Shown piece by piece: positions 13,671 through 48,372 of a stretch of DNA of 64,000 bases (position 1 is the first letter of the stretch; every line of letters begins with the position of its first letter). Source of the stretch: an uncultured Clostridia bacterium (lineage in GTDB: Bacteria > Bacillota > Clostridia > Christensenellales > CAG-314); the NCBI GenBank assembly GCA_944336125.1, contig CALVLA010000001.1, positions 96,414-160,413 on the forward strand. The letters are read 5' to 3'. Below the pieces are notes generated by a model. It was not told the origin of the DNA. It was given only the letters and a program-made list of their open reading frames with translations, and made no database searches. Position numbers and translations under genes: made by a program.

Positions 13671-13813
13671 GTTTAACTCCGTGGATGAAACATCCGATAA
13701 GGAATAATTTAAAATAGTAGCAAGATAACTTTTACATTATCCCCGAAACAACCCATTTTATTAAGATATTATAACACAAAAGTAACAACCTATCAACAAA
13801 CTGAAAAGCAAAA

Positions 13814-16048
13814 TCAATCTGCGAAAAAGGTCTGATATTTGCGGTTTTCGTCGTTAAGGAAAAATTTAAGCAAAGTGTTGCGCAAAACGACGTAATTGTT
13901 TTTAACCATCATGGCGACGTATTTTTTTGAGCCTACAAGTACGACTGTTTTTTTCGCGCGGGTAATAGCCGTGTAAAGAAGGTTTTTGTTGAGTATGGTA
14001 GGCGAGCCGCCGTAAAGCGGGATGACCGCGACGTCAAACTCACACCCCTGACTTTTGTGTACGGTAATGGCGTAAGCAAGCATAAGGCTTGCAAGGTCAC
14101 CGTGCATGTACTGAACTTTGCGTCCGTCCTCAAAAGTAATTTCGATAAACCCTTCGTACTGATTTACCTCGGTGACGTAGCCTATGTCGCCGTTGAACAC
14201 TCCTTCGCCAAACTCGGTAAAGCCTTTTTCGGAAATTTTGACCCATTCCGCCTCATAGTTGTTTTGGGTCTGCATTACCTTGTCACCAAGCCTGAAAACC
14301 GTTTCGCCTATGCGGAACTCCCCTTTGCCTTTTGCTTTCGGGTTCAACTTTTCCTGCAAAAGCACGTTAAGTTTTTCAACTCCGGCAGGCCCCGATTTGA
14401 GAGGAGAAAGCACTTGTATGTCTTTCGGGTCGGCATGCGTAAAGGAAGGAAGACGAGTAGTTACCAACCCCACTATTTCCTCTGCGGTATGCGCCGCGTC
14501 TACAGTCGGCAAAAAGAAAAAGTCCTTGCTTTTGTTGTCGAAAACAGGCATTTTTCCCTCGTTGATAAGGTGAGCATTTGTTACTATCAGGCTGTCCGAA
14601 GCCTGCCTGTAAATGTAAGTGAGGTAATTTATATCAAACACTCCGCTTGAAATAACGTCGCCGAGAACGTTTCCTGCGCCAACCGACGGAAGCTGATCCT
14701 TGTCTCCCACAAGCACGAGCCTGCAGCCGGGTTTTAGGGCTTTGAGCAAACTGTTGAACAAAAGGCAGTCAACCATGGACATTTCGTCAATGATGACGGC
14801 GTCGCAGTCAAGCTGATTGCTTTCCTTAAAGCGAAACTGAGTTTTTCCGCCAACGCTTTCCACCCCCAAAAGACGGTGAATTGTTTTCGCTTCGTACCCA
14901 GTCGACTCGGAAAGTCTTTTTGCGGCGCGCCCCGTAGGAGCGACAAGTTCAGTTTTAAGCCTCATAGCGGCAAAAATTTTGCAAATGCATTTGACGAGAG
15001 TGGTTTTTCCCGTGCCGGGACCACCCGTAATTACCGTAACACCTTTGTTTGCCGCGCTCATTATAGCTTTTTTCTGGTCGGCGTGAAAGGCAAAATTGTT
15101 TTGTCTTTCAAATTCCGAAATGAAAAGTTCTACGTCGTCGACGCACTCGGCAGGCTGATAAACCATACGCACAAGCCTGCCCGCAATGCTTTTTTCCACA
15201 GACAGGTAGCGCGAAAGAGAAATCACCCTTTTTCCTTCCAACATCATGCTTCCCACAGCCGATTCAAGCTGCATGTCGGCAATGACGCTTTCCGTCTTGT
15301 CGGTAATGTCCTCCTGCAAATCAAGCAAAGCCGCAACCTTTTGTTTCAGCTCGTCAAAATACAAAAAGGTGTTGCCTGCCTTTTCCCCTGCTTCCTTCAA
15401 GGTAAAAACAACCCCTGCCCTGACGCGGAAAAGGCTGTTTTTTTCGATACCCACGCTTTCGGCGATTTTGTCTGCGGTGGAAAAGCCCACTCCGTCCACG
15501 TCGTCTATGAGTTTGTATGGGTTTGACGACACTACCTGCTCGGTACCGTCCTTGTAAACGTTGTAAATTTTAAGCGCAAGGTTTGTCGAAATGCCGTAGT
15601 TTTGCAAAGCCATAATCTGGTTTTGCATTTTTTTAAGGCCTATGCAGTTTTCGTAAATGGTAAGAGCCTTTGCTTTTGAAATACCCTTGACTTTTGACAA
15701 AGCGAGATAATCGTTTTCGATGACTTTAAAAGTATCCCTACCGAACTTGTCAACAATTGCCTTTGCCGTAATGGGTCCTATGCCCTTTATCAGTCCGCTG
15801 GAAAGATACTTGACTATTCCCTCGGGAGAGTCAGGTGTTTCGTACTTAAATGACGAAACGGAAAACTGCTGACCGAATTTTTGATGAACGACAAATTTGC
15901 CCTCACACGAGACGACTTCACCGTTAGTGAGGGCAGGCAATGAGCCGACAACGGTGATGTCCTCACCGTTGACGTTTAAAGTTGCTACGGTATAACCGTT
16001 TTCCGCATTGTAAAAAACGGTATTTTTTACGGTACCTTTAATTTGCAT
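13814..16048 (-). CDS. recD2: ATP-dependent RecD2-like DNA helicase (RecD/TraA family)
   Basis: 744 aa with ITGGPGTGKTT Walker A, IIDEMSMVD, LVLVGDKDQLPSVGAGN and a C-terminal ITVHKSQGCEF...YTAITRAK. Confidence 0.9.
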   Translation of the reverse strand: MQIKGTVKNTVFYNAENGYTVATLNVNGEDITVVGSLPALTNGEVVSCEGKFVVHQKFGQQFSVSSFKYETPDSPEGIVKYLSSGLIKGIGPITAKAIVDKFGRDTFKVIENDYLALSKVKGISKAKALTIYENCIGLKKMQNQIMALQNYGISTNLALKIYNVYKDGTEQVVSSNPYKLIDDVDGVGFSTADKIAESVGIEKNSLFRVRAGVVFTLKEAGEKAGNTFLYFDELKQKVAALLDLQEDITDKTESVIADMQLESAVGSMMLEGKRVISLSRYLSVEKSIAGRLVRMVYQPAECVDDVELFISEFERQNNFAFHADQKKAIMSAANKGVTVITGGPGTGKTTLVKCICKIFAAMRLKTELVAPTGRAAKRLSESTGYEAKTIHRLLGVESVGGKTQFRFKESNQLDCDAVIIDEMSMVDCLLFNSLLKALKPGCRLVLVGDKDQLPSVGAGNVLGDVISSGVFDINYLTYIYRQASDSLIVTNAHLINEGKMPVFDNKSKDFFFLPTVDAAHTAEEIVGLVTTRLPSFTHADPKDIQVLSPLKSGPAGVEKLNVLLQEKLNPKAKGKGEFRIGETVFRLGDKVMQTQNNYEAEWVKISEKGFTEFGEGVFNGDIGYVTEVNQYEGFIEITFEDGRKVQYMHGDLASLMLAYAITVHKSQGCEFDVAVIPLYGGSPTILNKNLLYTAITRAKKTVVLVGSKKYVAMMVKNNYVVLRNTLLKFFLNDENRKYQTFFAD

Positions 16049-16051
16049 TAC

Positions 16052-17248
16052 TTATTTCAAAAATTTTTGTGCATTGTTTAAGAGATCGTCCACCATGTCC
16101 ACTTTTTCCCAAGGCAAACCGTCTTTGCCAAAGTGTCCGTAAGCGGCGGTTTTTTTGTAAATCGGGTTCAACAGTCCCAGTTTGTCGATAATGGCTTTCG
16201 GACGCAGGTCAAAAGTTTCGCACACAAGCTGTTCGAGACAGTTGTCTGAAATTTTGCCCGTACCGAAAGTATCTATACAAACGGAAACAGGTTTAGCCAC
16301 GCCTATAGCGTATGAAACTTCCATACACACCTTGTCGGCAAGGCCTGCCGCCACGATGTTTTTGCAGATATAACGCGACATGTAAGCGGCGCTTCTGTCC
16401 ACTTTCGTAGGGTCCTTGCCGCTGAAAGCTCCGCCGCCGTGAGGGCAATATCCGCCGTAAGTGTCGACTATGATTTTTCTGCCTGTAAGTCCGCTGTCGC
16501 CGTGAGGGCCGCCCACTTCGAAACGTCCGGTAGGATTGATGAAAAATTTGGTGTTTTCGTCAATAAGTTCGCAAGGAATTACTTCGAGAATAACGTGTTT
16601 TTTAACTTCCTCGCGAAGTTTTTCGGTGCTTACGTCTTTTGTGTGCTGGGTGGAAATTACCACGGCGTCAACTCTTGCCGGCACGTCGTCGCGGTATTCT
16701 ACGGTAACCTGACTTTTTCCGTCAGGCAAAAGATAATCCAGCTTTCCGCTTTTTCTGACTTCGGAAAGTTTTTTGGTAAGTTTGTGGGCAAGCATTATAG
16801 GAAGCGGCATAAGTTCAGGCGTTTCGTTGCAGGCATAGCCGAACATCATACCTTGGTCACCCGCGCCTATTTTGTCCTCGATGTCGCTGCTGTCCTTTTT
16901 AAACTCCGAGCTGTTGTCGACGCCCAAAGCGATATCTGGCGACTGCTCGTTAATTGAAGTCAAAACCGCGCAGGTATCTGCGTCAAATCCGTATTTTGCT
17001 CTGGTGTAACCTATTTCCCTAACCGTGTCGCGTACAATCGTAGGTATGTCGACGTAACACGAAGTGGAAATTTCGCCCATAATGTGAACCATACCCGTAC
17101 ATGCGGTTGTTTCGCATGCGACGCGGGCGTCAGGGTCCTTTTCGATGATAGCGTCAAGGATAGCGTCCGAAATTTGGTCGCACATTTTGTCAGGATGTCC
17201 TTCAGTAACGCTTTCGGAAGTAAAAAATCTTACCTTTTGCTTAGCCAT
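16052..17248 (-). CDS. metK: S-adenosylmethionine synthetase
   Basis: [32 protein letters not shown] and [16 protein letters not shown]. The start is at ATG 17248 (MAKQK), preceded by GGAGGA. The longer track ORF reads into the riboswitch terminator. Confidence 0.96.
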
Positions 17249-17260
17249 AAAATCCTCCGT

Positions 17261-17410
17261 AAAAAAAATGTCCTGCCGAGCGCACAGGACAACAAAAAAC
17301 CTTAATTGTGCCATCTGTCAAGCTCGCTTGCGGAAATTAGCACCTTTTCATTGTCGAAAGGTTGCTGTGTCATCGACGGGTCCGTCCCTCCGACACTCTT
17401 GATGGTGAAA
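17261..17410 (-). promoter_or_regulatory. SAM-I (S-box) riboswitch with terminator, leader of metK
   Basis: The minus strand reads CCATCAAGAGTGTCGGAGGGACGGACCCGTCGATGACACAGCAACC...GGTGCTAATTTCCGCAAGC...GACAGATGG, with P1 formed by CCATC/GATGG at 17401-17405 / 17311-17315. It is followed by the hairpin GTCCTGTGCGCTCGGCAGGAC (17270-17290) and a U-run (17261-17268). Confidence 0.9.
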
Positions 17411-34439: not shown

Positions 34440-34475
34440 AAAAGTCATTTATGCTTCCGTAGTTAAATGGATATA
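34440..34475 (+). repeat. Partial copy of the tRNA-Arg 5' flank plus tRNA positions 1-23
   Basis: aaaagtcatttatgcttccgtagttaaatggatata is identical to 34569-34604. Similarity with a few substitutions and a 1-nt indel extends about 15 nt further upstream. Confidence 0.9.
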
Positions 34476-34581
34476 CTTCGCTTCCGCTCCGTGGCGTTCG
34501 CCGCAGCAGCGGCTCGGCTTAACAGCCCCGGGCTGTCCGTTTTTCAAACAAGCAAGTTTTTCAAGCACAAAAGTCATTTAT

Positions 34582-34656
34582 GCTTCCGTAGTTAAATGGA
34601 TATAACAGCCCCCTCCTAAGGGGCCGTTGTGGGTTCGATTCCCGCCGGGAGTACCA
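34582..34656 (+). tRNA. tRNA-Arg (anticodon CCT), CCA encoded
   Basis: Hand-folded cloverleaf. The acceptor stem is GCTTCCG/CGGGAGT, the D arm GTTA-AATGGATA-TAAC, the anticodon arm GCCCC-CTCCTAA-GGGGC (anticodon CCT), and the T arm GTGGG-TTCGATT-CCCGC. The discriminator is A, followed by CCA. Confidence 0.85.
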
Positions 34657-34685
34657 CCGCCGTCCTTTCGGACGGCTTTTTGTTT
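34657..34685 (+). terminator. Intrinsic terminator after tRNA-Arg
   Basis: Stem ccgtcc/ggacgg with loop tttc, followed by ctttttgttt. Confidence 0.75.
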
Positions 34686-34758: not shown

Positions 34759-34808
34759 CGATTCCCGCCGGGAGTACCACCGCCGTCCTTTCGGACGGCT
34801 TTTTGTTT
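34759..34808 (+). repeat. Direct repeat of the tRNA-Arg 3' end plus its terminator (att-like scar)
   Basis: The 50 nt cgattcccgccgggagtaccaccgccgtcctttcggacggctttttgttt are identical to 34636-34685. Confidence 0.9.
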
Positions 34809-37254: not shown

Positions 37255-39495
37255 TTATTCATTGTACTGAGAAATTTCTGCAATGTTCAAGCTTTTTGAT
37301 TTTGAACTGTAAACGTTATTGTATCCCTTAAATTTCAAAGTGTTGTTTTCCGAAATTTCCAATTTCGCACCGACAACGTTGGAACTACTACACAAACCGA
37401 TAGTTTTATTTTCCGTCAAAATATAGACACCGGAATTCACAGATTCGCTGTTTGAAAAATATTGTGTGCAATCCTGTCCTTCAAACACATTCGAACCATC
37501 CGGACAATAGCAATAACACCCGTCGCAACTTGTAGGAGGTACGGTTCGTGTTTCTGAAGAATAATAATTGCCCGAAGAAACTTTGATTTTTGTCGGTTTG
37601 TCTTTGACCAATCCGTTGACGGTTTTTACCACATCGGTTGTACCGTTTCCGGACAAAGTCAATGAAGAAGCTACAACCTGCCACTTGTCTGACACAACGT
37701 AAGCAGATATATTCAATTCATTACCGGCCAATACCGTAACAGAGCGAATGCCGTCGTAAGCTTTACCGTTGACAACAAAATAGTCAAAAGTATAACCTGC
37801 ATCTACAGAAGGTATTATTTTAATCACATAATTCGGGAAAATCGGTGTTGTTTCTATTGAAATAGGTTCATACTCGGCAGGACATTTATCTCCGGGATTA
37901 ACAAGCATGTTGTTTTCACACCAGCAATAGCACCCTCCGTCGCATTCCGGCTCATATTCTCCGTGAATTTGTTTTTGATAACTTATATGTATACCTTGGT
38001 CAATTTGCAAATTTAGTATTGTGCGAACGACAGCCGTAGTCGTTATGTTTACGTTGCCCGATACCTCACAAGTAACGGTTTTGTCTCCGCTGTATGCCTG
38101 CGAATTTACTTTAAACAAGTCTATCCAATATCCGTGGGCTGCCGAAGCGGTAACTGTCAACACATCCCCTGTCAAAATTTCAGCCCCGTCAGTCAAAGGG
38201 GTGCCATTTTTTGAAACCGTAACAGTTGTATTTGCCCCTTGTGAAACAGAAAGAGTAAATCTGCCCACGCTAGTAGTTGCAAGCGTTAAGTTACCCGAAA
38301 CCTCAATGGTTTTTGTAAATGATTGTTCAGGATTGCCGTTTACCAAAAGACCCGTCACGTCATAATTTGAAAGAGACGGCACGGCTGAAATCGTAAGAGT
38401 TTCGCCGTGAATAATCGTTGCGCCGTTCGATAATGATTGTCCCGACGAATTAGTGACGTTAATTGTTGTGCCTACAGCCGGGTTTAATGTCAAGGTATAA
38501 CCTGATACCGTTGAGATAACCAGCGGCTGTTTAACAGTAATCCCCGTATCAACCCCGCCTTCGGAAGTCATTCCGTTAATTGTCGTTGAAACGATTTTAT
38601 TGTCACTCAAAGCATATGTCCTAATTTGCAGATATCTACCGTGTCTTACGGTATTCGCGCTGTATTTGTTTTCTACATACCTGGTACAATACTGGCTGTT
38701 TTGAATTTCCGTGCCGTCCTCACAATAGCAATAACACGTATCGCACAAATCGCCGTAAATTTCATAGTCAGAATTATAAAGATAAATTTCCGTATTAGGC
38801 GCGGCATTGAGAGTAATAGGATGTTGCACCAAACCGTTTGCCTGAACTACAGCCGTAACGTTTCCCGTGACGGAAGCAACAGAATTCGTTCCGCTTTGGT
38901 TGAGATAAAACGTAGGATCCGCATAATTCTCGTCGGCATTTGCCGATATAGATACACTGTCGCCGTAATAAAGTTTCAAACTGCCCGCCGATGAAGGATT
39001 TGCAATAAGCTGCCCCGTATTCCCGACAAGGCTGAAACTTCTGGAAATCGAGTAAGACACGTGATCCGGAGCGGCAGGATAAGACAATGTGAATTCCTGA
39101 ACTTCCATTTTGACGCCGGTAATTTTTACATCGCTTTGGACGCTTGCCACTGAAAAGGTCTGCCCTTGTTTCTCGTAAGTAATTTCACAAGCAAGCTTAA
39201 ACTGCGTTGACGAGTGTTCCGAAAGCGTGAGATTAAACGTTCCGTCAACTCTCGAACATTTGTTGACGAAAGAAAAATTTTTCGTCATTTTGTTTGTTTG
39301 ATTAGAAATTTCAAAAGTGCCGTTTAAAGGAACGGTTGTACTGACGTCACCGGTACACAAGCCGTTGAGATGTACCGTCAAATTTCCCTCAAGCGTCACT
39401 TTTTTTGTAAAATCGTATTGCGGCTTGTCGAACAGCACATAACTGCCGTTTGACAAAACCGTGTTGCTAAAAGTTGCAATTTGTATATCTGCCAT
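37255..39495 (-). CDS. Leaderless 746-aa beta-rich protein with three CxxCYC(Y/W)C cysteine clusters and InlB-B-repeat-like modules; unknown function
   Basis: The start is at ATG 39495 (MADIQIATF), preceded by AGGAG, and there is no signal peptide. Cys clusters are encoded near 38722-38745, 37921-37944 and 37504-37527. It is a paralog of the 46511-47959 gene. Confidence 0.6.
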   Translation of the reverse strand: MADIQIATFSNTVLSNGSYVLFDKPQYDFTKKVTLEGNLTVHLNGLCTGDVSTTVPLNGTFEISNQTNKMTKNFSFVNKCSRVDGTFNLTLSEHSSTQFKLACEITYEKQGQTFSVASVQSDVKITGVKMEVQEFTLSYPAAPDHVSYSISRSFSLVGNTGQLIANPSSAGSLKLYYGDSVSISANADENYADPTFYLNQSGTNSVASVTGNVTAVVQANGLVQHPITLNAAPNTEIYLYNSDYEIYGDLCDTCYCYCEDGTEIQNSQYCTRYVENKYSANTVRHGRYLQIRTYALSDNKIVSTTINGMTSEGGVDTGITVKQPLVISTVSGYTLTLNPAVGTTINVTNSSGQSLSNGATIIHGETLTISAVPSLSNYDVTGLLVNGNPEQSFTKTIEVSGNLTLATTSVGRFTLSVSQGANTTVTVSKNGTPLTDGAEILTGDVLTVTASAAHGYWIDLFKVNSQAYSGDKTVTCEVSGNVNITTTAVVRTILNLQIDQGIHISYQKQIHGEYEPECDGGCYCWCENNMLVNPGDKCPAEYEPISIETTPIFPNYVIKIIPSVDAGYTFDYFVVNGKAYDGIRSVTVLAGNELNISAYVVSDKWQVVASSLTLSGNGTTDVVKTVNGLVKDKPTKIKVSSGNYYSSETRTVPPTSCDGCYCYCPDGSNVFEGQDCTQYFSNSESVNSGVYILTENKTIGLCSSSNVVGAKLEISENNTLKFKGYNNVYSSKSKSLNIAEISQYNE

Positions 39496-39575
39496 AAAAT
39501 CTCCTGTAACTAACAAAAAATCAACCACCTAAAAGATGATTGATTTTAGTTAAAATAAAATTTTTAGTAATTTTT

Positions 39576-39646: not shown

Positions 39647-39988
39647 TCAAAGGAAAAACAATTCAACAAGCATAAATGCCATCACGCCCAAAAGCAAAAC
39701 ATCGAGCGTAAAAACAAATTCCCAAGAGGTGTATCCCACTGTAGGTTTTTTTGGATAAGCAATTCTATAAATCTTGTAATAAACAATAATCCAAAACGTT
39801 GCCCACGCAATCGTCGCGCTTATCAGGCAATATTTGTCTATTGTTCCGCTGATAAGAAACGAAACAACAAAACAAACGCCCGAAAGGACAAACTGTCCCA
39901 ACACTGCAAGGAACCAATGTTCCAAAAAAAATGTTTCCATGTAGGCTTTTATGGATTCGCCTTTTTGTCTTTTTCTTAATTTTTTCAT
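39647..39988 (-). CDS. Small polytopic membrane protein, candidate (orphan) immunity protein, paralog of 40040-40438
   Basis: 113 aa with 3-4 hydrophobic helices. It shares the (Y/L)EH(L/W)FL...LI(E/S)G(K/T)I..(F/Y)C pattern with its neighbour. No obvious SD is present. Confidence 0.45.
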   Translation of the reverse strand: MKKLRKRQKGESIKAYMETFFLEHWFLAVLGQFVLSGVCFVVSFLISGTIDKYCLISATIAWATFWIIVYYKIYRIAYPKKPTVGYTSWEFVFTLDVLLLGVMAFMLVELFFL

Positions 39989-40039: not shown

Positions 40040-40438
40040 TCAAGTGAAAATTTTTGTTACCAATCCCACAACAACAATGGCTATTATAATGCCAACTAAA
40101 AATACAGCTGTCATCACCCATCTACCGTATAAAACCATGGACCAAGAAATATCGTTTTCAATATTTATATTTTTCTTTTTTAAAATCTCAAACAAGCATT
40201 TTCGTAAAATTTGCGTGGCTATTACAACGCCTGTTATAAAGACAACACCAAAACAAAATTCGCCGATTTTTCCTTCGATAAGCCACATAAGCAAAAATGT
40301 CGAAACTGACAAACAAAGCTCAAAAAAAATGTAAAGGAATAAATGTTCATACATTAAATAAAACTGATAATCATAAAACATTTCTTTGTCATACGGCATT
40401 CTGACGTTTTTAACTAATTTTTTTAACAACCTTTTCAT
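40040..40438 (-). CDS. Small polytopic membrane protein, candidate cognate immunity protein for the RHS C-terminal domain
   Basis: 132 aa with 3-4 hydrophobic helices and a GAGGA RBS. It lies 61 nt downstream of the RHS stop, the classical toxin-immunity position. Confidence 0.5.
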   Translation of the reverse strand: MKRLLKKLVKNVRMPYDKEMFYDYQFYLMYEHLFLYIFFELCLSVSTFLLMWLIEGKIGEFCFGVVFITGVVIATQILRKCLFEILKKKNINIENDISWSMVLYGRWVMTAVFLVGIIIAIVVVGLVTKIFT

Positions 40439-40499: not shown

Positions 40500-43400
40500 T
40501 TATGCCAAGTCTTCCAATAAGTCTTCAAGAACCAATGATATGATTATGATTAATATTACCGTAATTATCGCTCCGGGCAATCCGCCAACAATAGAACCCA
40601 GTTTTATTATTAAGAAAGATATACCTTCTGACAAGAAAAATACTTTGGCGTTTTTTTCCAAACTATACAAGAAGTCGCCTGTTTCCGCAACATCACTAAA
40701 AAATGAAATGAAAAAATTAGTAAGAGATAATGCTATTGTAAATGATTTGTATTCTATTTTTTTTAAAATTTCAACAAAATCGAAGGATGCATTTGTAAAA
40801 TCTAATATGTTGCCGATAACCGCGGCTCCGACAAACAAAGCCTGCCCCACACTGATTTGAGTGTTGTTGAACAGATAGTCTGTTGGCGAAATAACGGCTT
40901 TTGCTTCCTTAACGTTGAGAGGTCTGTTGGCACAGTAAGCAAAGAGATTCAGCCCGTCTTTTTCAAACGACAAATTCGACATGTCTCTCATAGCCAAGTA
41001 TCTGCCTGTTTCAGGGTTATAATATTCTTTACCGGTGTAATACAAGCCACTTTCCGCATCATAATAATAACCTTTGTAACCGATGCGGAACAATGTTGAA
41101 GACGAAATATTTGTTCCTTCCAATGTTTTAGGGTAATGAGGTTTTCCGTATGCGTCATAATTTATCGCAAGAACACGTCCGCTGTCTCCGTAAATTCCGA
41201 CTACACTTCCGAAGATATCTCTGTCAAAACTGAAAACAACAAAATTATTTCCGTCTTTCATGAAAGTATCATCATCCTCAAAGTCAGGACGATAAAGTTT
41301 GACAGCGCAAACTCCAATTTCATCATATATGTAATGAATCATATATAACTCTTGCACTGTATCCTGTCTTACATTATAACATCTTTCTGCAATGAGCTTG
41401 TCACCGTCATAATAGTAGCATCGGTTTTCACTTACATTATTTGAAATAACATTTCCGTTTGTGCGTATGACAGTTGATGTTTCCCTGAACGTCCTTTTAC
41501 CGTACAAATCGTAATCAAATTTATAAGTGTCTGTCGTTTCAGTTGTATTGATGCCATGAATAATCTCCGTATTGGAAAATTGTTTTAAAAGACCTCTTTC
41601 CCAGCTAACATTTTTTCCGTTAATTTTTGAAGGACAACCCTCATTATAACTGACGTTATCGTCTATTATTGTACTTCCAAATGTATGTTTTTTCAATAGG
41701 TACGGGTTATTTTGATGATACTCAAATGAATTGTTTCCCGAATTTGTACCTGTTACGTTTTTTGCTGTAATATTTCCGTACGAATCATAATTATATGTTA
41801 TCGACTGACCTGTCAAGCCGTTGCTTTCAGTCTTTAATCTACCGTTTTCATATGTGTACGAAATTAATTCGACACCGTTTGAGGAAACTTTAGTTATGTT
41901 TCCCGCCGTATCGTATTCATACTCTCTAACAACTTCTATTCCTTGCCCCACATCGTTAAAAGGTGTGTGATTAGTGATTTCCTTACTTACGAGATTTGTT
42001 TCGACTCCGTTTTTGATTAGGTATTGATATGTTTTTTGCAAACTGCTTCTGTTTGAAAATATACCGACCGGAGAAGAGCAGTATGTTTTTTTCAATCGGT
42101 TAATATCATCTACCTCACGCTGCAAAACAATGTTATTTGCTTCCATATTAGAATTAGACACATCACCGTTGTGGTTAGGCGAAACATAAGTCACGTTTAC
42201 GGTTTTGCCGTCACGGTCAAATTGATTTTTAAAATACATTATTCCTGCCGCTTCGTTGTTTATCGCATAACCCCTGTATGCCTTTCCGTCTTTTACAAAA
42301 GATTTTTTCTTCCATACCAACTTTCCGGTACAGTTAAACACTTCTTCTTTAAACTCGTCGGTAGAATACGTTTTTTTCGTACCTGCCAAATCATCGATAA
42401 TCTTGCTGATTTGTGGTTTCGATGTTCCGTTTACGTAACTGATAGAAGCCGACTTGTCTCCTACCGAAACAGCAGTCATCCTACCGTACTTGTCAAAAGT
42501 AGTTGTCTGTGAAGAATTACCGAATGTTTTTGTAATTGTTTTTCCGCTACCGGAATTTATGACGCTGCTTGCAAAAATTTGCTCATCGTTAATTTTTACA
42601 CTAGTTAAATCACCAAGAGCAGAATAACCGAATTCATACTCGGCATTACCTTGAGATATGCTTTCTATATTACCTTTATTGTAGGTTAAAGCAGTATCAT
42701 TCACATTAACAATTTTTTCCTTGAAATTGTCGTAAATATATGTAATATTTCCTGTCGGTGAAAAAACTTTGTTCACAATGTTATGCGGCATTAAATACTC
42801 ATAACGCGTAATAAAACCGTTTGCGTCTGTTTCGAAATTTTTATGACCTGTCTGAACGTCATACGATGATGACATCACAAGACTTTTATCACTTGCAGAA
42901 GCATTATATTTGCTTACTTTTGTTTCAGTAAGATTACCGAAAGAATCATAAGTATATTCGGTAACAACATTATTTTCCAAAACATATTTGACTGTTCCGT
43001 CATAATTTGTTCGTACAATTTTGCCGTAACTACCGTAAGTTTTATTTGACAAAAGATCTTTAACCGATGTAACAGACTCAATATAATTGGGCAAGAATGT
43101 TTCCTCAACATCTATACATGCTCTAAACTGATTTCCTGCACCTTTATCTTGAGACGAGTCGTCAATCAATTTAGTTCTGTAAATTAATGATACAATTTTA
43201 TCTTGACCTTGCTCTGCAGGCTGTATCATATTTAAATTTATAAAGTTTGAGTTAACCGTATCAATTTTAAAAGAGCATTTGCTTGCAGCAACATTGCAAA
43301 TTCTTTTTTTACCGTTGCAATAAATTATATCGAATGAATTTCTGCTTTTTGCCGCATTTCCAAGAGTTTTCCTCAAATCATTAGTGGTAAATTCATTTGC

Positions 43401-44939
43401 GCCGAAAGCAGTAAGTATTCCATCAATACTTATGCCACTGATTGCTTTTACGCTATATTCGGTATCTTGTACTTCGGTTCCTGTTTTTTCTTTAACAATA
43501 AGTATTTCTGAATTAGCCAAACTTGAAGTTGCGCTTTCTTGAGAATACAATTCTTCATTGCTATTATCTGTAATATTAAATATACTTTCAATTTCACCGT
43601 CATTTTTGAAGTTATATTTCTTTTTTGCACCCAACTCGTCAGTAACAACGGTATTGTCATTGTTGTAAGCAAAAGAAGTGAACATGACGGCATCGGCAAG
43701 ACGAGCAACCTTGATTACACGGCCCAATTCATCATAAGTCATGTTTAATTCTTTGTAGTCGTCGCCGAAAATTTTAGTAAGTCTGCCGTTTAAGTATCCG
43801 AACTGCGCCTGAATACTTTCAACGGTGCTTCCGTCCACTTGCGCTTCTTTGTGAATTTTTGTCAGACGACCGTCGATGTAAGTAAACTTCAACACTTCGT
43901 CCGCGCTATGCTCGCTTCCCGTGTAAGAAATGCTTGAAAGCAAGTCGTTTTGGTATGAAAACGTCGCTTTGTAATTTCCGTTTTGAATGTAAGCTATGCG
44001 TGTGTTCGCCAAAGAATCGCCGATGTCCGAAGCGTTAACGTTGGACGAGTTATTCAAACCGCTTGCCTCATATCCGATGAAAAGGTCATTGCCCAAAGCT
44101 GAATTTATGCAACAAAGTTTGCCTTGCGGCGAAAAATGCATTTCGTTTCCGTTGACGTCGGAAAGTTTTTTGCAACTTGCAACTGTTCCCAAAAACAAGC
44201 CCAGGCCGCTCGTATCGTAAATTTTTCCGTTGCTTATATCAAAAAAGTGCGCTTTGCCGCTTGCGTCCACGTAAGAAGCATTTTGATTGTTTCCCGCAAG
44301 ATATTGATGAAAATTGGTTTTCCACCCTTTGCCTGCCTGTGTGTGAATATCCGAAAAAATCTCATCGCTGTCATAGCTTGCGCCTTTGTAAATGTGCATA
44401 AGGTTAAAAGCCGTAGCCCCGCCGCCAAACGACCAGTCGTTTCTTGAAAAATTCAAGCTGCCGTCTCGAAGGTTTACGCTTGCCGTACCTATCGAGCCGA
44501 TGTCAAAGGTTTGATAAGCGTCGGTATTTAATTCACGGTTTACGAAATCGCATTCCCTATCAGCGGTAAGTTTTACGGTAAATGACGCAGAAGCGGAAAA
44601 AGACGCCGCCGTTTTTGGAATGATTTTTACAAAAATCGTCCCTCCGCCGTTCATTTTACTTTTAGTCAAATCCAGCAAGTTTGCGGTAAAAGTGTTTTCT
44701 CCTGCCGAAAAAGTTTTTTCAAACAAAAAATGGCAAGTTTCGCAAGGCGGAGTCACCTCCGCCTCAGGCAACGCGAAAATATTTGCGGAAAACGAAGCCG
44801 ATGCGTTTACGGCAATATTTAAATTCGCTTCCGTAATTGAGTTTTCCGAAGCAGACGGATTGACCTTGTTAAAATCCGGAACAGTAATTTCAAATATTCC
44901 GTTTGCCGCAGTAAAATTTTTAATATATGTACTCTGCAT
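40500..44939 (-). CDS. RHS/YD-repeat protein (1479 aa) with no signal peptide and a hydrophobic 136-aa C-terminal domain
   Basis: Many YD repeats (YTYDSFGNLTE, YEYDTAGNITK, YNYDSYGNITA, FDYDLYGKRT, INYDAYGKP). The RHS core end is YYDAESGLYYTGKEYYNPETGRYL...DGLNLFAYCANRPLN. The start has an AAGGAGGG RBS. Confidence 0.85.
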   Translation of the reverse strand: MQSTYIKNFTAANGIFEITVPDFNKVNPSASENSITEANLNIAVNASASFSANIFALPEAEVTPPCETCHFLFEKTFSAGENTFTANLLDLTKSKMNGGGTIFVKIIPKTAASFSASASFTVKLTADRECDFVNRELNTDAYQTFDIGSIGTASVNLRDGSLNFSRNDWSFGGGATAFNLMHIYKGASYDSDEIFSDIHTQAGKGWKTNFHQYLAGNNQNASYVDASGKAHFFDISNGKIYDTSGLGLFLGTVASCKKLSDVNGNEMHFSPQGKLCCINSALGNDLFIGYEASGLNNSSNVNASDIGDSLANTRIAYIQNGNYKATFSYQNDLLSSISYTGSEHSADEVLKFTYIDGRLTKIHKEAQVDGSTVESIQAQFGYLNGRLTKIFGDDYKELNMTYDELGRVIKVARLADAVMFTSFAYNNDNTVVTDELGAKKKYNFKNDGEIESIFNITDNSNEELYSQESATSSLANSEILIVKEKTGTEVQDTEYSVKAISGISIDGILTAFGANEFTTNDLRKTLGNAAKSRNSFDIIYCNGKKRICNVAASKCSFKIDTVNSNFINLNMIQPAEQGQDKIVSLIYRTKLIDDSSQDKGAGNQFRACIDVEETFLPNYIESVTSVKDLLSNKTYGSYGKIVRTNYDGTVKYVLENNVVTEYTYDSFGNLTETKVSKYNASASDKSLVMSSSYDVQTGHKNFETDANGFITRYEYLMPHNIVNKVFSPTGNITYIYDNFKEKIVNVNDTALTYNKGNIESISQGNAEYEFGYSALGDLTSVKINDEQIFASSVINSGSGKTITKTFGNSSQTTTFDKYGRMTAVSVGDKSASISYVNGTSKPQISKIIDDLAGTKKTYSTDEFKEEVFNCTGKLVWKKKSFVKDGKAYRGYAINNEAAGIMYFKNQFDRDGKTVNVTYVSPNHNGDVSNSNMEANNIVLQREVDDINRLKKTYCSSPVGIFSNRSSLQKTYQYLIKNGVETNLVSKEITNHTPFNDVGQGIEVVREYEYDTAGNITKVSSNGVELISYTYENGRLKTESNGLTGQSITYNYDSYGNITAKNVTGTNSGNNSFEYHQNNPYLLKKHTFGSTIIDDNVSYNEGCPSKINGKNVSWERGLLKQFSNTEIIHGINTTETTDTYKFDYDLYGKRTFRETSTVIRTNGNVISNNVSENRCYYYDGDKLIAERCYNVRQDTVQELYMIHYIYDEIGVCAVKLYRPDFEDDDTFMKDGNNFVVFSFDRDIFGSVVGIYGDSGRVLAINYDAYGKPHYPKTLEGTNISSSTLFRIGYKGYYYDAESGLYYTGKEYYNPETGRYLAMRDMSNLSFEKDGLNLFAYCANRPLNVKEAKAVISPTDYLFNNTQISVGQALFVGAAVIGNILDFTNASFDFVEILKKIEYKSFTIALSLTNFFISFFSDVAETGDFLYSLEKNAKVFFLSEGISFLIIKLGSIVGGLPGAIITVILIIIISLVLEDLLEDLA

Positions 44940-44948
44940 TTTCCCTCC

Positions 44949-45725
44949 TTAATCACCTATAAACACAAACGCGTTTTTTCGAGGATTGTTTTTCATCCAC
45001 TCTACTGCGCAAAACAGCGAAAGTTTTGCGTAATTCAATTCAGAAAGCCGCTCGGTATCCCACAGTACTTTTTCAAAATTATTTTTGTACTCTGCTTTGT
45101 CATGCGGCCATACAAATCCGACGTCGGCGGCGGAAAAAATCAGATGGTGTGTTTGAATTTTCCTTTCATCCGGTTTTGCCACAAAACAATCGGCAAAACA
45201 ACCGTTTTCCTCCAGTTTTTCCCTGACTGCCCTCAAAGTAGCGCCCGTGCCCACTTTTTCAAAAACGGCGTCTATTTTTATGCCGTCAAAGACATCGCCC
45301 AACAAGTTTTTGTAAAAATCTATTTGTTTGGTGTTTCCGAATTGTCTGAAACTGTATGCGTTGTGCTCAGAAATTGTTTGTTCGAGTTTTTCTTTTAACA
45401 CTGAAAAGTCAAAACTGTTTTTGGTCTCGACAATTTCGACATTATCGAATGATTTTAGCTTTTCCTCTGTTTTTTTACTAAAAATACCTATCGGTATCAC
45501 AAACAGCTTGCTGCCTGTTTTTCGGCACTGCTCGGCAAGAGCAATGCCGAAATTTCCCGCAGTAATCTCTGCCACTGCTTGTCCGTGTTTAAGTTCGCCG
45601 CTTTTCAAGGCACTATTTATCACCCACTCCGCAAGCAACTCTTTTTTGCTTTTAACTGGACGAAAAACGTAAAGCTTCCCTTGAAGTCGGTAAAAATCAC
45701 AAAGGTTTTCCAAACTCCAAAACAT
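44949..45725 (-). CDS. Divergent CysK-fold (PLP fold type II) protein, paralog B
   Basis: 258 aa. Segments align by eye with the cysK of this window. GELKHGQAVAEITAGNFGIALA matches GDIKPGDEISEATSGNTGIAFS. AVFEKVGTGATLRAV matches AFTAGVGTGGTMMGT. NAFVFIGD matches NVVTVFADD. The start overlaps the paralog A stop (TGATG). Confidence 0.5.
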   Translation of the reverse strand: MFWSLENLCDFYRLQGKLYVFRPVKSKKELLAEWVINSALKSGELKHGQAVAEITAGNFGIALAEQCRKTGSKLFVIPIGIFSKKTEEKLKSFDNVEIVETKNSFDFSVLKEKLEQTISEHNAYSFRQFGNTKQIDFYKNLLGDVFDGIKIDAVFEKVGTGATLRAVREKLEENGCFADCFVAKPDERKIQTHHLIFSAADVGFVWPHDKAEYKNNFEKVLWDTERLSELNYAKLSLFCAVEWMKNNPRKNAFVFIGD

Positions 45726-46492
45726 CAGTCCTCCCAGTAAAGAAGTACAGTTTTACCCGGGTTCATTTGCAGCCAGTTAATAGCACCTTGTACGCTTGTG
45801 AAAAAAGTTCTTGCAGCGTTGCCCATTACGCCGAAATCACCGTTTTGATACCTGAACGCAAGATGTCCCGCCATGCTGCCCTGTACGTCAATCAGCTGAA
45901 TATTCTGATTTTTTACCAAATCGCGTATGAAAGGTTTCTTTTCATACTTTTTGTCGTCCCTGTAACATGAGTTGGAAAAACCGAATTGACACGAATTTTT
46001 CAAAATCTCGTAAAAGCCTCTCATTGTCGCGCCGCTTCCCATAAAGTCAATGAAAACATCGGGAACACGACCGAATTCGGAAACTGCCTTTTGCGCCTCT
46101 TGTTTGTAATATTCAATCATTGCCAAATCGGAAAACTGATCAAAATAGTACCAGCCCTCATTTCTCAGACGAGCAATAGCGTCTTCTTTTTCCTGCGCAG
46201 GAGTCCTGTCAATCGAAAAGCCCAAGGCGGTAATTTGATTAAACGAAACGGGATCCTCAAACTTGCCCAAAATAGGCAAAAAGTTAATGCCCCTCTGCTT
46301 GCAGACTTTTGCCACTTCTACGGCAAACCTACCTGACGAAGCGATGGAAAGCTTGTTGTTGAAAAGCCTGCCCTGCCTTTGACACGTATCAACGATATAT
46401 TCTGCCAAAGCGGCATTTTTCCCTTTAGGATTTTTGTATGCGTAAATATTACCGTTGCAGTTTTCCATAAAAATATTAAGATTTTTAATCAT
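45725..46492 (-). CDS. Divergent CysK-fold (PLP fold type II) protein, paralog A
   Basis: 255 aa with NPKGKNAALAEYIV (candidate PLP-lysine region), IASSGRFAVEVA and DFMGSGATMRGF. The same architecture as paralog B. AAGGAGAA RBS. Confidence 0.45.
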   Translation of the reverse strand: MIKNLNIFMENCNGNIYAYKNPKGKNAALAEYIVDTCQRQGRLFNNKLSIASSGRFAVEVAKVCKQRGINFLPILGKFEDPVSFNQITALGFSIDRTPAQEKEDAIARLRNEGWYYFDQFSDLAMIEYYKQEAQKAVSEFGRVPDVFIDFMGSGATMRGFYEILKNSCQFGFSNSCYRDDKKYEKKPFIRDLVKNQNIQLIDVQGSMAGHLAFRYQNGDFGVMGNAARTFFTSVQGAINWLQMNPGKTVLLYWED

Positions 46493-46510: not shown

Positions 46511-47959
46511 TTAAAAATATTGTTCGACCTTAGTAATAGTCAATGTTTTTTGAGGCGTATCTCCACCTTTGTAACCGTTGAATGTAAGTTGGTTTGTACT
46601 TATGCTTACAGTCGTATCATGCAAAGACGATGAACTAGACGACATTGAAAGCGAAATGCTTGTACCGGCATTGTTAGAAGTATGCAGACCTTCGTTTATG
46701 TAAATGTAATCTCTCCTCCACTCTCCGCACAAACTTCCGTAATCCACCTGACCGCCGTCGGCACAGTAGCAATAGCAGCCGCCGTCGCACCACTCTGGCT
46801 CCGTCGAGCCGGGCGCATAGTAGCGCGTGCTGTAGGATCCGCTTGAAACAGTGATACGCGTTTTTCTTCCTGCAACTATACCCGGCACGGATTTTGTTAT
46901 ATTATCCGTTGTTCCGCTAAACGTATAGGTATTTGAATTTACCGTTCTCCATGCGACAGATTGCAGTTTTGTCTCAATAGTCATTTTTCCGTTCACTATT
47001 GTATTACTGTTTGCCATAACACTGAAAAATGTACTTTGAAATGTTTTGTTTCCCACCTTAACGTAATCCAAAAATTTCCCGTTCGGAATGCTTGTTTGGA
47101 TATAAATCACATCGCCGTAAGTAATATAATCAAGGTTGTAATCACCGTAAATTGTAGGACAATCTTCTCCCCATGGTACCGAGGAGCCGTCCTGACAATA
47201 GCAATAGCATCCTCCGTCACAGTCAAATGACGGATGAGGCGGATACAAAAATTTTTTCAAACTTATCGTAGTCCCAGTATAAGGTTGCAAAACTATTGGA
47301 TAATGAATTTTGCCAGACGTATTGAAAACTAACGAAACGTTTCCGGATATGTTGGTTTTAGATGTAACTCCGGCCGTATCAAAGCCGAAAGACGGTGCGT
47401 AGTACCCGTTCTCGGCAGATGCAGATACCGTTAGGGAATCGCCGTTGTAAACATGCACGGATCCGCTATAATTAGGACTGTTTATCAACACTCCTGTTTC
47501 CGCAACTTCACTTGCCGTTCTTGTCACCGTGTAAGTGTAGCCTTCAGGACAAGCCGGATAACTAAGTACATAACCCGGAATTTCCTGATAAATTTTCGTA
47601 ACGGAAATCTGCCCCGACACATCCCACGCCATAAATGACTGACCTTGAAAAGTGTAATCCACCGTGCAATAAAGAGCCCCGTTAGAAACTGTCAGGCTCA
47701 ATGTCGCATCAATCGACGAGCACTTATTTGTGAGCTTGGCCGAAAAATTTTTACTGTTTTGTCCGGCCGGAATTTCGTAAACACCTGCAGTAAAAATATC
47801 CCCTGTCACGTTTTCGCCGCAGCTTCCCGATATACTACCCGACCAATTTCCCGATATATTTACGGAAATAGGATAGTTGGAATAGATTTCGTCAAGAGCA
47901 AACGAAACCTGCGTACCTTTACTTAAAACTTTGTTTTCGGAATTTAATATTTGTTCCAT
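46511..47959 (-). CDS. Leaderless 482-aa beta-rich protein with two CDGGCYCYC clusters; paralog of 37255-39495
   Basis: The start is at ATG 47959 (MEQILNSE), preceded by GGAGG. The shared N-terminal ~240 aa includes LSYPA(A/C)P and GDS(L/V)(T/S)(V/I)SA(S/N)A(E/D)(N/E)(G/N)Y(Y/A)(A/D)P. Cys clusters are encoded near 47198-47221 and 46766-46789. Confidence 0.6.
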   Translation of the reverse strand: MEQILNSENKVLSKGTQVSFALDEIYSNYPISVNISGNWSGSISGSCGENVTGDIFTAGVYEIPAGQNSKNFSAKLTNKCSSIDATLSLTVSNGALYCTVDYTFQGQSFMAWDVSGQISVTKIYQEIPGYVLSYPACPEGYTYTVTRTASEVAETGVLINSPNYSGSVHVYNGDSLTVSASAENGYYAPSFGFDTAGVTSKTNISGNVSLVFNTSGKIHYPIVLQPYTGTTISLKKFLYPPHPSFDCDGGCYCYCQDGSSVPWGEDCPTIYGDYNLDYITYGDVIYIQTSIPNGKFLDYVKVGNKTFQSTFFSVMANSNTIVNGKMTIETKLQSVAWRTVNSNTYTFSGTTDNITKSVPGIVAGRKTRITVSSGSYSTRYYAPGSTEPEWCDGGCYCYCADGGQVDYGSLCGEWRRDYIYINEGLHTSNNAGTSISLSMSSSSSSLHDTTVSISTNQLTFNGYKGGDTPQKTLTITKVEQYF

Positions 47960-47970
47960 AAAACCTCCAG

Positions 47971-48372
47971 TCATAAAATTCGATTGATAACGACATTTCC
48001 GATTTTTTCCGTACACGTTTTTGACTTTGTGTTTTCCTCTCCGACAAATGTTTTTACGTTTACGTTTTTAGTAAAATCCACCAAATCATCGATTTTTTCA
48101 TCCAGCATGCCAAAATCAAAGGAAATACCGTTATCCAAAGCGTATTTTCTCATAAGAGTCATTACGTATTCTTTTTTCTCCTGTCCGCTGAAATTTACAA
48201 ATTGTTCCGCTTGTTTGATAAGCGGCAAAATTTCATCGCAGATTTGAACGATGTTTTCCGCCGTTGTTTTTGCTTTTTCACTTTTCAAAAACTTTGCGAT
48301 AAATGTGATAACCGCAATTATCAGGCTAATTACAGTGCCTGCCAACGAAATGATAATTTCCGCATTTTCCAC
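47971..48372 (-). CDS. Holin-like small membrane protein (resembles the LL-H phage holin family)
   Basis: 133 aa with a GTG start preceded by AGGAGG. It has a single N-terminal TM (IIISLAGTVISLIIAVITFIAKFL), then a helical domain with AEQ...GQEKKEYV...D..ID pattern as in Holin_LLH proteins. This is recognised from memory only. Confidence 0.4.
   Translation of the reverse strand: MENAEIIISLAGTVISLIIAVITFIAKFLKSEKAKTTAENIVQICDEILPLIKQAEQFVNFSGQEKKEYVMTLMRKYALDNGISFDFGMLDEKIDDLVDFTKNVNVKTFVGEENTKSKTCTEKIGNVVINRIL

Follow-up and report, generated by a model that had tools for sequence, protein, structure and literature searches.

What do five closely spaced cysteines do when they recur several times over in large, leaderless, all-beta proteins of an anaerobic gut bacterium? 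The question is raised by a 64,000-nucleotide stretch of an uncultured Clostridia genome (contig CALVLA010000001.1, positions 96,414 to 160,413; hereafter, the window), in which two paralogous genes on the minus strand encode protein A (746 aa; 37255..39495) and protein B (482 aa; 46511..47959). An initial annotation of the window had drawn attention to a repeated cysteine cluster in both. Judged from the searches and alignments described here, the family that carries these clusters (referred to below as X) is real, strongly constrained, and very rare.

Five-cysteine clusters in proteins A and B

Cluster copies were located with the regular expression C.{2,3}CYC[YW]C.{8,14}C, which recovered all of the copies that had been claimed previously, namely, three in the 746-aa protein A and two in the paralog at 46511-47959. 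In A, these are cluster 1 (aa 251-270, CDTCYCYCEDGTEIQNSQYC; 38686..38745), cluster 2 (aa 518-538, CDGGCYCWCENNMLVNPGDKC; 37882..37944), and, in the C-terminal domain, cluster 3 (aa 657-676, CDGCYCYCPDGSNVFEGQDC; 37468..37527). In B, they are cluster 1 (aa 247-267; 47159..47221) and, again in the C-terminal domain, cluster 2 (aa 391-411; 46727..46789), with all five encoded on the minus strand. The coordinates given earlier spanned only the part of each copy that runs from the first to the fourth cysteine (C1-C4), thereby missing the fifth (C5). The consensus across A and B is C-D-x(1,2)-C-Y-C-[YW]-C-x(11)-C. A relaxed core pattern, C.{1,4}C[YFW]C[YFW]C, matched the six-frame translation of the window five times, each time at one of the A or B clusters, compared with a chance expectation of 0.008 based on amino-acid composition and with 0 matches in 200 codon shuffles. 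At the DNA level, the regions encoding the five clusters make up a single 36-nt repeat family (D1).

The two proteins are related along most of their lengths, with aa 5-350 of A resembling aa 3-357 of B (32% identity) and aa 414-744 of A resembling aa 146-481 of B (30%), such that, in terms of these alignments, A is B plus extra internal modules. The open reading frame (ORF) for A (37255..39528, minus strand) opens at a GTG, and the ATG at 39495, with AGGAG 6-7 nt upstream as a ribosome-binding site, gives the 746-aa product, which is modeled as an all-beta, multimodule protein. The N-terminus of A, MADIQIATFSNTVLSNGSYVLFDKPQ, was assessed by inspection only and exhibited no signal-peptide features, in agreement with what had been stated for it at the outset.

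Conservation and rarity of the motif

A word-indexed search of 5.8 billion protein clusters returned four relatives of A and 16 of B (homologs of A include P0001 and P0002), and an exhaustive hidden Markov model search with the family profile against 1.84 billion representatives returned 61 proteins. The motif is present, without exception, in proteins whose alignment spans the cluster positions. Conservation of the cysteines, which the initial annotation had set as the test that could refute its metal and knot proposals, proved to be nearly complete, with all five being retained in 39 of the 40 distinct cluster copies (from about 25 homolog clusters), even though overall identity among the homologs is just 31-45%. 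In all 40, C1 is followed by Asp and C2 by Tyr, while the second aromatic position is Y in 35, W in four, and H in one. The C1-C2 gap spans two residues in 10 copies and three in 30, and the C4-C5 gap spans 9-13 residues, mostly 11. The sole degenerate copy (P0026, aa 231; FDGCYFYCHG...C) has lost C1 and C3 together, each replaced by Phe. In full-length alignments of members that are 22-45% identical, the cluster columns account for a large share of the invariant columns, specifically 8 of 20 in alignment A6 (cluster 3 of A) and 10 of 35 in alignment A1 (cluster 2 of B). Two more invariant cysteines, C47 and C80, lie in the N-terminal domain of the family.

Relatives were scarce elsewhere. A scan of GTDB (one genome per species, 185,579 species) yielded one related locus, fragmentary, in Ca. 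Heteroclostridium caecigallinarum from chicken caecum, and a scan of JGI metagenomes yielded one more. No relative was found in IMG/VR with the A1 profile, and tblastn of B found no match among 50,697 GenBank phage records. A profile of the cluster itself (A3), run against the 5.8-billion-protein index, gave 10 candidates and did not recover the known members, making that particular search uninformative.

Predicted structure of the cluster

The AlphaFold2 (AF2) models of both proteins are all-beta and confident, despite shallow alignments, with a mean predicted local distance difference test score (pLDDT) of 91.8 for B (m4969ca6ff487) and 88.1 for A (m682aaf41291e). In four of the five copies, C2-Y-C3-[YW]-C4 forms the first strand of a two-stranded hairpin and is linked through an x-D-G turn to a short return strand, with C5 situated at the hairpin base. 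The paired strands span residues 255-257 and 263-265 in cluster 1 of A, 661-663 and 669-671 in cluster 3 of A, 252-254 and 260-262 in cluster 1 of B (where C5, residue 267, participates in a beta-bridge), and 396-398 and 404-406 in cluster 2 of B. Cluster 2 of A is modeled less regularly (strands 517-519 and 523-526, pLDDT down to ~74). In both models, pLDDT dips, to 74-84, at the clusters only. The hairpin sits within a module, in the loop that follows its first long strand, and hence the earlier placement of the clusters at junctions between modules was imprecise, as the models put none of them at a linker. As modeled, the cluster is a self-contained mini-element of ~21 residues that elaborates a loop of an all-beta module.

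Foldseek searches with both full-length models against the PDB returned generic strings of immunoglobulin-like domains (6fwv TIE protein, 7vcn/7vcr PitA, and SdrD) at TM-scores of <=0.21. Thioester or isopeptide adhesin domains of the kind found in TIE proteins and pilins were rejected on this basis, since the best PDB matches reached TM-scores of 0.12-0.21 with root-mean-square deviations of 21-45 A, relative to a criterion of TM >0.5 together with Cys-Gln or Lys-Asn bond motifs. Against BFVD, the matches were uncharacterized phage proteins, "Bacterial repeat domain-containing" proteins, and one tail collar fiber protein. Foldseek also gave picornavirus jelly-roll capsid proteins at low probability.

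Is the motif already described?

The view that the motif belongs to no recognized family has held up across each of the resources consulted. Pfam, NCBIfam, PHROGs, and PADLOC gave no match over the clusters of whole A and B; Pfam, when applied at E<=10 to 35 cluster segments of 45 aa taken in isolation, gave three single-member chance matches only, with none to a zinc finger or metallothionein; and the PDB sequence profile of the cluster (A2) gave 0 matches at E<=10. Full-text literature searches found no description of such a CXCXC or CYCYC motif. Within the libraries searched, the predicted five-cysteine hairpin is undescribed, and it is, by sequence, a new motif of a known general kind, that of small beta-module staples rich in cysteine.

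Several known arrangements were considered and rejected. A zinc ribbon or rubredoxin-type Zn(Fe)Cys4 site does not fit, as the cluster has one knuckle-like pair, C1-x(2,3)-C2, and the remainder comprises a CxCxC strand and a lone C5. The ferredoxin-type [4Fe-4S] pattern, CxxCxxCxxxCP, differs from the observed spacing (C-x2-3-C-x-C-x-C-x9-13-C), and a Pro follows C5 in some copies only. An Fe-S tail-tip domain of the lambda gpL type was dismissed, given that PHROGs, Pfam, and PDB sequences yielded nothing matching gpL and that none of the searches linked X to gpL by sequence or by fold. Precursors of cysteine-rich, ribosomally synthesized and post-translationally modified peptides (SCIFF, ranthipeptide, or lanthipeptide) were likewise set aside, as the clusters lie within folded proteins of 482 and 746 aa. 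A likeness of B residues 12-68 to the Qbeta (Levivirus) coat protein, with an aligned "GSC", is weak and probably due to chance; in the PDB profile of the B family, it reached E ~0.1 per single chain, and 4e-5 solely from a tandem-fusion chain.

The initial annotation had also likened the modules that surround the clusters to divergent InlB B-repeats. Taken directly, this likeness stays below threshold, with A scoring 16.6 bits against the PF18998 (Flg_new_2, InlB B-repeat) gathering score of 23.6 (residues 423-486) and B giving no match. It does receive indirect support from Flg_new and Flg_new_2 matches among relatives, although the homologs P0012 and P0014 have "faint" precomputed PF18998 matches only. 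Tandem beta modules of ~70-100 aa are common to the X family and to Flg_new or "bacterial repeat" proteins, as seen with the family profile, Pfam, and BFVD.

Descent from phage fiber proteins

Beyond the cluster-bearing homologs, ~45 distant profile matches share with X only the repeat module (profile positions ~110-220), with many of them also having the C-terminal domain that ends in ...ITKIEQYY. The N-termini of these relatives begin "MA..." and are leaderless, and the cysteine cluster is found in none. Among the proteins matched by the profile are some in which the repeat module aligns 3-16 times. Two of them, P0029 and P0040, carry PF09479 (Flg_new). Their gene neighborhoods are those of phages. 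The gene for P0024 comes after genes for TerL, the portal, a protease (Peptidase_S78 match), and a tail-assembly chaperone, and before a head-fiber-domain gene; that for P0034 follows a head-fiber-like gene; and that for P0040 occupies a tail-fiber position, beyond genes that Pfam assigns to baseplate V and W and three unannotated ORFs. X resembles phage fiber-like proteins of the Flg_new (PF09479) and Flg_new_2 (PF18998) kind in being leaderless, all-beta, and built as beads on a string from a shared module, and it differs from these phage relatives, whether adjoining head-fiber-domain genes or in tail-fiber position, in bearing the cysteine cluster.

Because the genes of the relatives lie in phage contigs, we conclude that X is, as far as sequence and gene order can tell, a chromosomal descendant of phage fiber (tail or head fiber) proteins. 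In the alignment of the C-terminal domain, the position of the cysteine cluster is taken in the phage relatives by a short D-G-x-Y loop, and the cluster is restricted to chromosomal copies of X. By these alignments, the chromosomal branch gained it as an elaboration. The phage relatives are presumably assembled in the cytoplasm, since their genes neighbor those for the capsid, portal, terminase, and baseplate, and descent from such fibers would explain why X has no signal peptide.

What might the cysteines do?

Our favored, though still tentative, reading is that the cluster is a putative metal-thiolate structural staple, with zinc being the most likely metal and iron or an Fe-S center being possible. 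In this mechanism, the C1-D-G-(G)-C2 turn would lead into the strand C2-Y-C3-[YW]-C4, followed by the x-D-G turn, the return strand, and C5 at the base, and the five thiolates, possibly together with the invariant Asp, would hold the metal center, for which Zn(II) is the default candidate and Fe or a small Fe-S center is the alternative. Loading would take place in the cytoplasm, and the bound metal would stiffen the exposed hairpin, which could then keep the elongated X stable after its release, along with an RHS-repeat toxin encoded nearby, through holin/endolysin-type lysis genes. Metal binding, the staple function, the joint release, and any targeting role are what we infer.

Zinc knuckles resemble the C1-x(2,3)-C2 turn, and the ligands of metallothioneins and CXC domains resemble the CxCxC run. 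The CxxC/CxxxC spacing of the first pair is knuckle-like in this sense and supports a metal site, although X lacks the second CxxC knuckle of a zinc knuckle or ribbon. Further support comes from the invariant Asp that adjoins C1, from the local pLDDT dips at the clusters, which are what would be expected of a site modeled without its ligand, and from the relatives being proteins encoded among phage structural genes. There is also a precedent for a cysteine-ligated Fe-S center in a phage tail protein. Lambda gpL has four cysteines (C173, C182, C205, and C212; spacings of 8, 22, and 6) that hold a [4Fe-4S] cluster in a surface-located domain of unclear function (PMC10721106). Both gpL and the phage-fiber-like X have a conserved set of cysteines, whereas X has five within ~21 residues, one to three times per protein.

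The main rival, which we consider less likely, is a disulfide knot, in which four of the cysteines would form two disulfides after release (e.g., C1-C3 plus C2 or C4 with C5), locking the hairpin and leaving the fifth thiol free. In the models, C1 and C5 both lie at the hairpin base, with C5 forming a beta-bridge in B, and X is presumably extracellular once released, given the holin and endolysin-like genes of its cassettes. The odd number of cysteines, however, favors a metal over disulfides, as does the leaderless nature of X, which would be made and folded in the cytoplasm of an anaerobic gut Clostridia lineage; the gut lumen is reducing as well. Moreover, the relatives without cysteines fold without any cluster, and so the fold does not need it.

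Other observations weigh against the metal-thiolate staple. Along a regular strand, three cysteines at i, i+2, and i+4 are spaced ~6.5-7 A from one another, which is not ideal for one tetrahedral zinc site and hints at a polynuclear or other arrangement, and the presence of a single knuckle-like pair sets the site apart from a classical zinc ribbon or rubredoxin site. A C1-C3 disulfide would account equally well for the P0026 copy, from which both of these cysteines are missing, and the invariant N-terminal C47 and C80 could be a disulfide pair, which would imply oxidizing conditions after release. Finally, P0014 has three clusters, and the contig that encodes it, only 8.5 kb long, has no RHS gene.

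A chromosomal island with an RHS toxin and a holin-like gene

The window copies of X lie in a chromosomal RHS island and not in a prophage. Along the minus strand, the gene order is a holin-like gene, B, PALP-like 1, PALP-like 2, the RHS toxin, two small transmembrane ORFs, A, and two genes for GLUG proteins, with B being the first gene of an X/PALP/PALP/RHS cassette. Neither the RHS toxin nor the holin context, nor the phage-fiber ancestry of X, had figured in the initial annotation. The island (~34.8-48.4 kb) has a GC content of 34-42%, compared with 45-48% in its flanks, and is bordered by a tRNA-Arg gene and a leucyl-tRNA synthetase gene on one side and by cell-wall polysaccharide genes on the other. 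The synthetase groups with proteins named "MAG: Clostridia bacterium". The tRNA-Arg(CCT) gene at the island edge (34582-34656, plus strand) is partly duplicated, with its 5' part repeated exactly (34440-34475 = 34569-34604) and its 3' end and terminator repeated as well (34636-34685 = 34759-34808), 123-129 nt apart; these duplications may be an integration scar or a tandem partial tRNA copy. Farther off, a SAM riboswitch (RF00162, 72.8 bits; 17308-17408, minus strand) lies upstream of an ORF at 16052-17314 and is unrelated to the clusters.

The toxin gene (40500..44939, minus strand) encodes a leaderless, 1,479-aa RHS-repeat protein (PF05593, 46.9 bits, cutoff 22; TIGR03696, 44.4 bits, cutoff 32.5, residues 1261-1344) that comprises an N-terminal domain, the RHS core, and a strongly hydrophobic C-terminal domain of 135 aa, which may be membrane-active. 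Downstream are two small, multi-transmembrane ORFs of 132 and 113 aa (40040-40438 and 39647-39988, minus strand), which are candidate immunity proteins, and arrays of small ORFs occupy the same position after the RHS gene in loci L001 and L013. The locus therefore has the hallmarks of an RHS polymorphic toxin cassette, with RHS repeats, a core domain, a variable C-terminal domain, and small ORFs after it. Directly upstream of B, a 133-aa, holin-like protein (Holin_LLH; 47971..48372, minus strand) was identified by PF09682 (28.4 bits, cutoff 24.9) and phrog_6918 (holin, 7e-9). Downstream of A, two GLUG-motif proteins (PF07581; 34835..37116, minus strand) follow; the A/GLUG/GLUG order is repeated in L013, a 67%-identical locus (GLUG at 12351-14668), and one GLUG protein matches phrog_30905, a PHROG of unknown function.

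The combination of X, a PALP-like protein, and an RHS protein recurs in L001/L002, L003/L004 (with P0012, at 34% identity to B, as the X protein), L005/L006, L011, and L013. In L005 (3392-5361) and L006 (498-2467), P0020 (437 aa) and an overlapping 221-aa ORF together make up one P0016-like X of 656 aa, which points to a frameshifted or split gene; the two assemblies are independent. Lysis genes recur too. An endolysin-like gene with Amidase_3 and PG_binding domains lies upstream of the cassette in L003 (8657-9721), an ORF near that of L011 (10611-11678) resembles, on inspection, an amidase/PG-binding endolysin, and all three loci with readable upstream sequence have a holin or endolysin-like gene near the cassette. 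These lysis genes hint at a route by which the leaderless X and RHS proteins may be released, and the holin context would account for the missing leaders of A and B.

The association with RHS genes bears on a further explanation for the cysteines, which we regard as improbable, namely, docking between chains or between proteins. Here, the CxCxC strands of a fiber trimer, or a cluster and a CxxC of the RHS protein, would share a metal or a mixed disulfide, thereby tethering X to itself or to the toxin. The clusters are confined to chromosomal copies of X, and five of the six chromosomal cluster-bearing loci are linked to RHS. The RHS N-terminal domain has a CxxC (C66-x-x-C69) that is invariant across loci 37-48% identical (alignment A5), and the odd number of cysteines per cluster leaves a spare ligand. 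Trimeric phage fibers with axial metal ions are known (T4 gp37, HxH-Fe), as is the zinc hook of Rad50. Nevertheless, the confident AF2 monomer models pack each hairpin within its own module, P0014 has its clusters and no RHS gene on its contig, and the one to three clusters per X are matched by only a single CxxC per RHS protein. A profile-profile comparison (hhalign) of the RHS N-terminal domain with the X family found no homology (probability 0.3%).

PLP-fold partners of the fiber-like proteins

The two adjacent genes that had been noted earlier as having a pyridoxal phosphate (PLP) enzyme fold are real members of the fold, scoring 45.4 and 53.7 bits against the PF00291 cutoff of 35. PALP-like protein 1 (PALP1; 255 aa, 45725..46492, minus strand; also TIGR03945) is a short, degenerate version of the CysK/SbnA-like fold and has its ortholog in the protein encoded after the phage relatives of X. 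PALP-like protein 2 (PALP2; 258 aa, 44949..45725, minus strand), which aligns to the cysteine synthase 4il5, retains a Lys aligned to the PLP lysine of CysK, together with the TAGNFG and GTGAT loops, whereas PALP1 and the phage versions are degenerate (alignment A4).

These genes had raised the idea that the clusters are sites of post-translational chemistry; the two PLP-fold proteins might, for instance, carry out beta-replacement on the cysteines or form thioethers there. The idea draws on the position of both genes directly downstream of B, on the preserved features of PALP2, and on the extra, better-preserved PALP copy of the RHS-linked cassettes (the window, L001, L003/L004, and L013) relative to phages. 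The distribution of the partner genes weakens it considerably. A PALP-like gene (~255-264 aa) lies directly 3' of the X-type gene in all seven loci where that gene ends in ...EQY[YF] or ...EQWY (B in the window, L003, L005, L007, L009, L010, and L015), and four of these seven, on the phage-like contigs L007, L009, L010, and L015, encode fiber-like proteins without a cysteine cluster (the L015 partner matches the PALP-like family with an hhalign probability of 100%). A partner shared with cysteine-less phage relatives argues against modification of the cysteines by PALP, while leaving room for a role of the better-preserved PALP2. Conversely, A, its L013 ortholog, and P0014 are orphan proteins with no PALP gene following and with other C-termini (ISQYNE, ISQYNG, and LDQYIE), and the three-cluster X of L005, encoded by the frameshifted, split gene, is accompanied by the degenerate PALP1 type only. 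Pfam scans of the main ORFs of the island found no radical-SAM (S-adenosylmethionine), lanthipeptide, or other maturase. We therefore view cysteine modification by these proteins as very improbable.

Because four of the seven PALP-linked proteins have no cluster, the partnership instead appears to concern the fiber protein, possibly its C-terminal tail, and not the cysteines. In keeping with the latter, no PALP-like gene follows the relatives in L016 and L017, which lack the ...EQY[YF]/EQWY ending. CysK is known to bind C-terminal tails in its active site, as with the C-terminus of CysE and the CdiA-CT of E. coli 536. The genes described here may present a similar picture, in that a CysK-fold gene sits beside one whose product ends in a strictly conserved ...EQYY-COOH. 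The tail of X, however, ends in Tyr or Phe and not Ile, P0016 extends five residues past EQYY, and the PALP-like proteins are for the most part truncated and degenerate. These patterns suggest recruitment of a PLP-fold protein as a fiber partner, chaperone, or adhesin, and the conserved C-terminal tail may be what it binds. A literature search pairing cysteine synthase with tail fibers found nothing relevant.

Relation to known systems and significance

The Tc toxin of Yersinia entomophaga, YenTc, is released by a holin/endolysin mechanism. The RHS cassette resembles YenTc in combining a leaderless RHS-repeat toxin, accessory proteins, and lysis-type genes of phage kind. It differs in having no TcA or TcB homologs, in its accessory proteins being the fiber-like X and one or two CysK-like proteins, in its Gram-positive Clostridia host, and in that holin release is a putative route for it. 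Tc toxin release in Y. entomophaga is the subject of a published study (PMC10847046). By analogy, leaderless cargo encoded beside a holin or endolysin is reminiscent both of holin-dependent toxin release in clostridia (TcdE) and of Tc release in Yersinia. With its fiber-like X, CysK-like protein or proteins, leaderless RHS toxin, and lysis genes, the cassette appears to be an undescribed, phage-derived toxin system of gut Clostridia. A more elaborate scenario, which we put forward as speculative and distinctly improbable, would have the hairpins dock a domesticated fiber X, by metal or redox chemistry, to the N-terminal CxxC of the RHS protein, with the CysK-fold protein clamping the ...EQYY tail, the whole making up a holin-released, fiber-targeted, and previously undescribed RHS delivery system in Gram-positive gut anaerobes.

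Should the clusters bind metal, beta-sandwich modules would have in them a novel staple, a compact hairpin of ~21 residues that could be transplanted, and phage-type fiber proteins would offer a further case of metal centers. The motif may matter less than the cassette around it, which offers the more interesting lead. Beyond the cysteines, a PLP-fold protein as an obligatory neighbor of phage fiber genes that end in ...EQYY suggests an unrecognized role for this fold as a fiber chaperone or adhesin.

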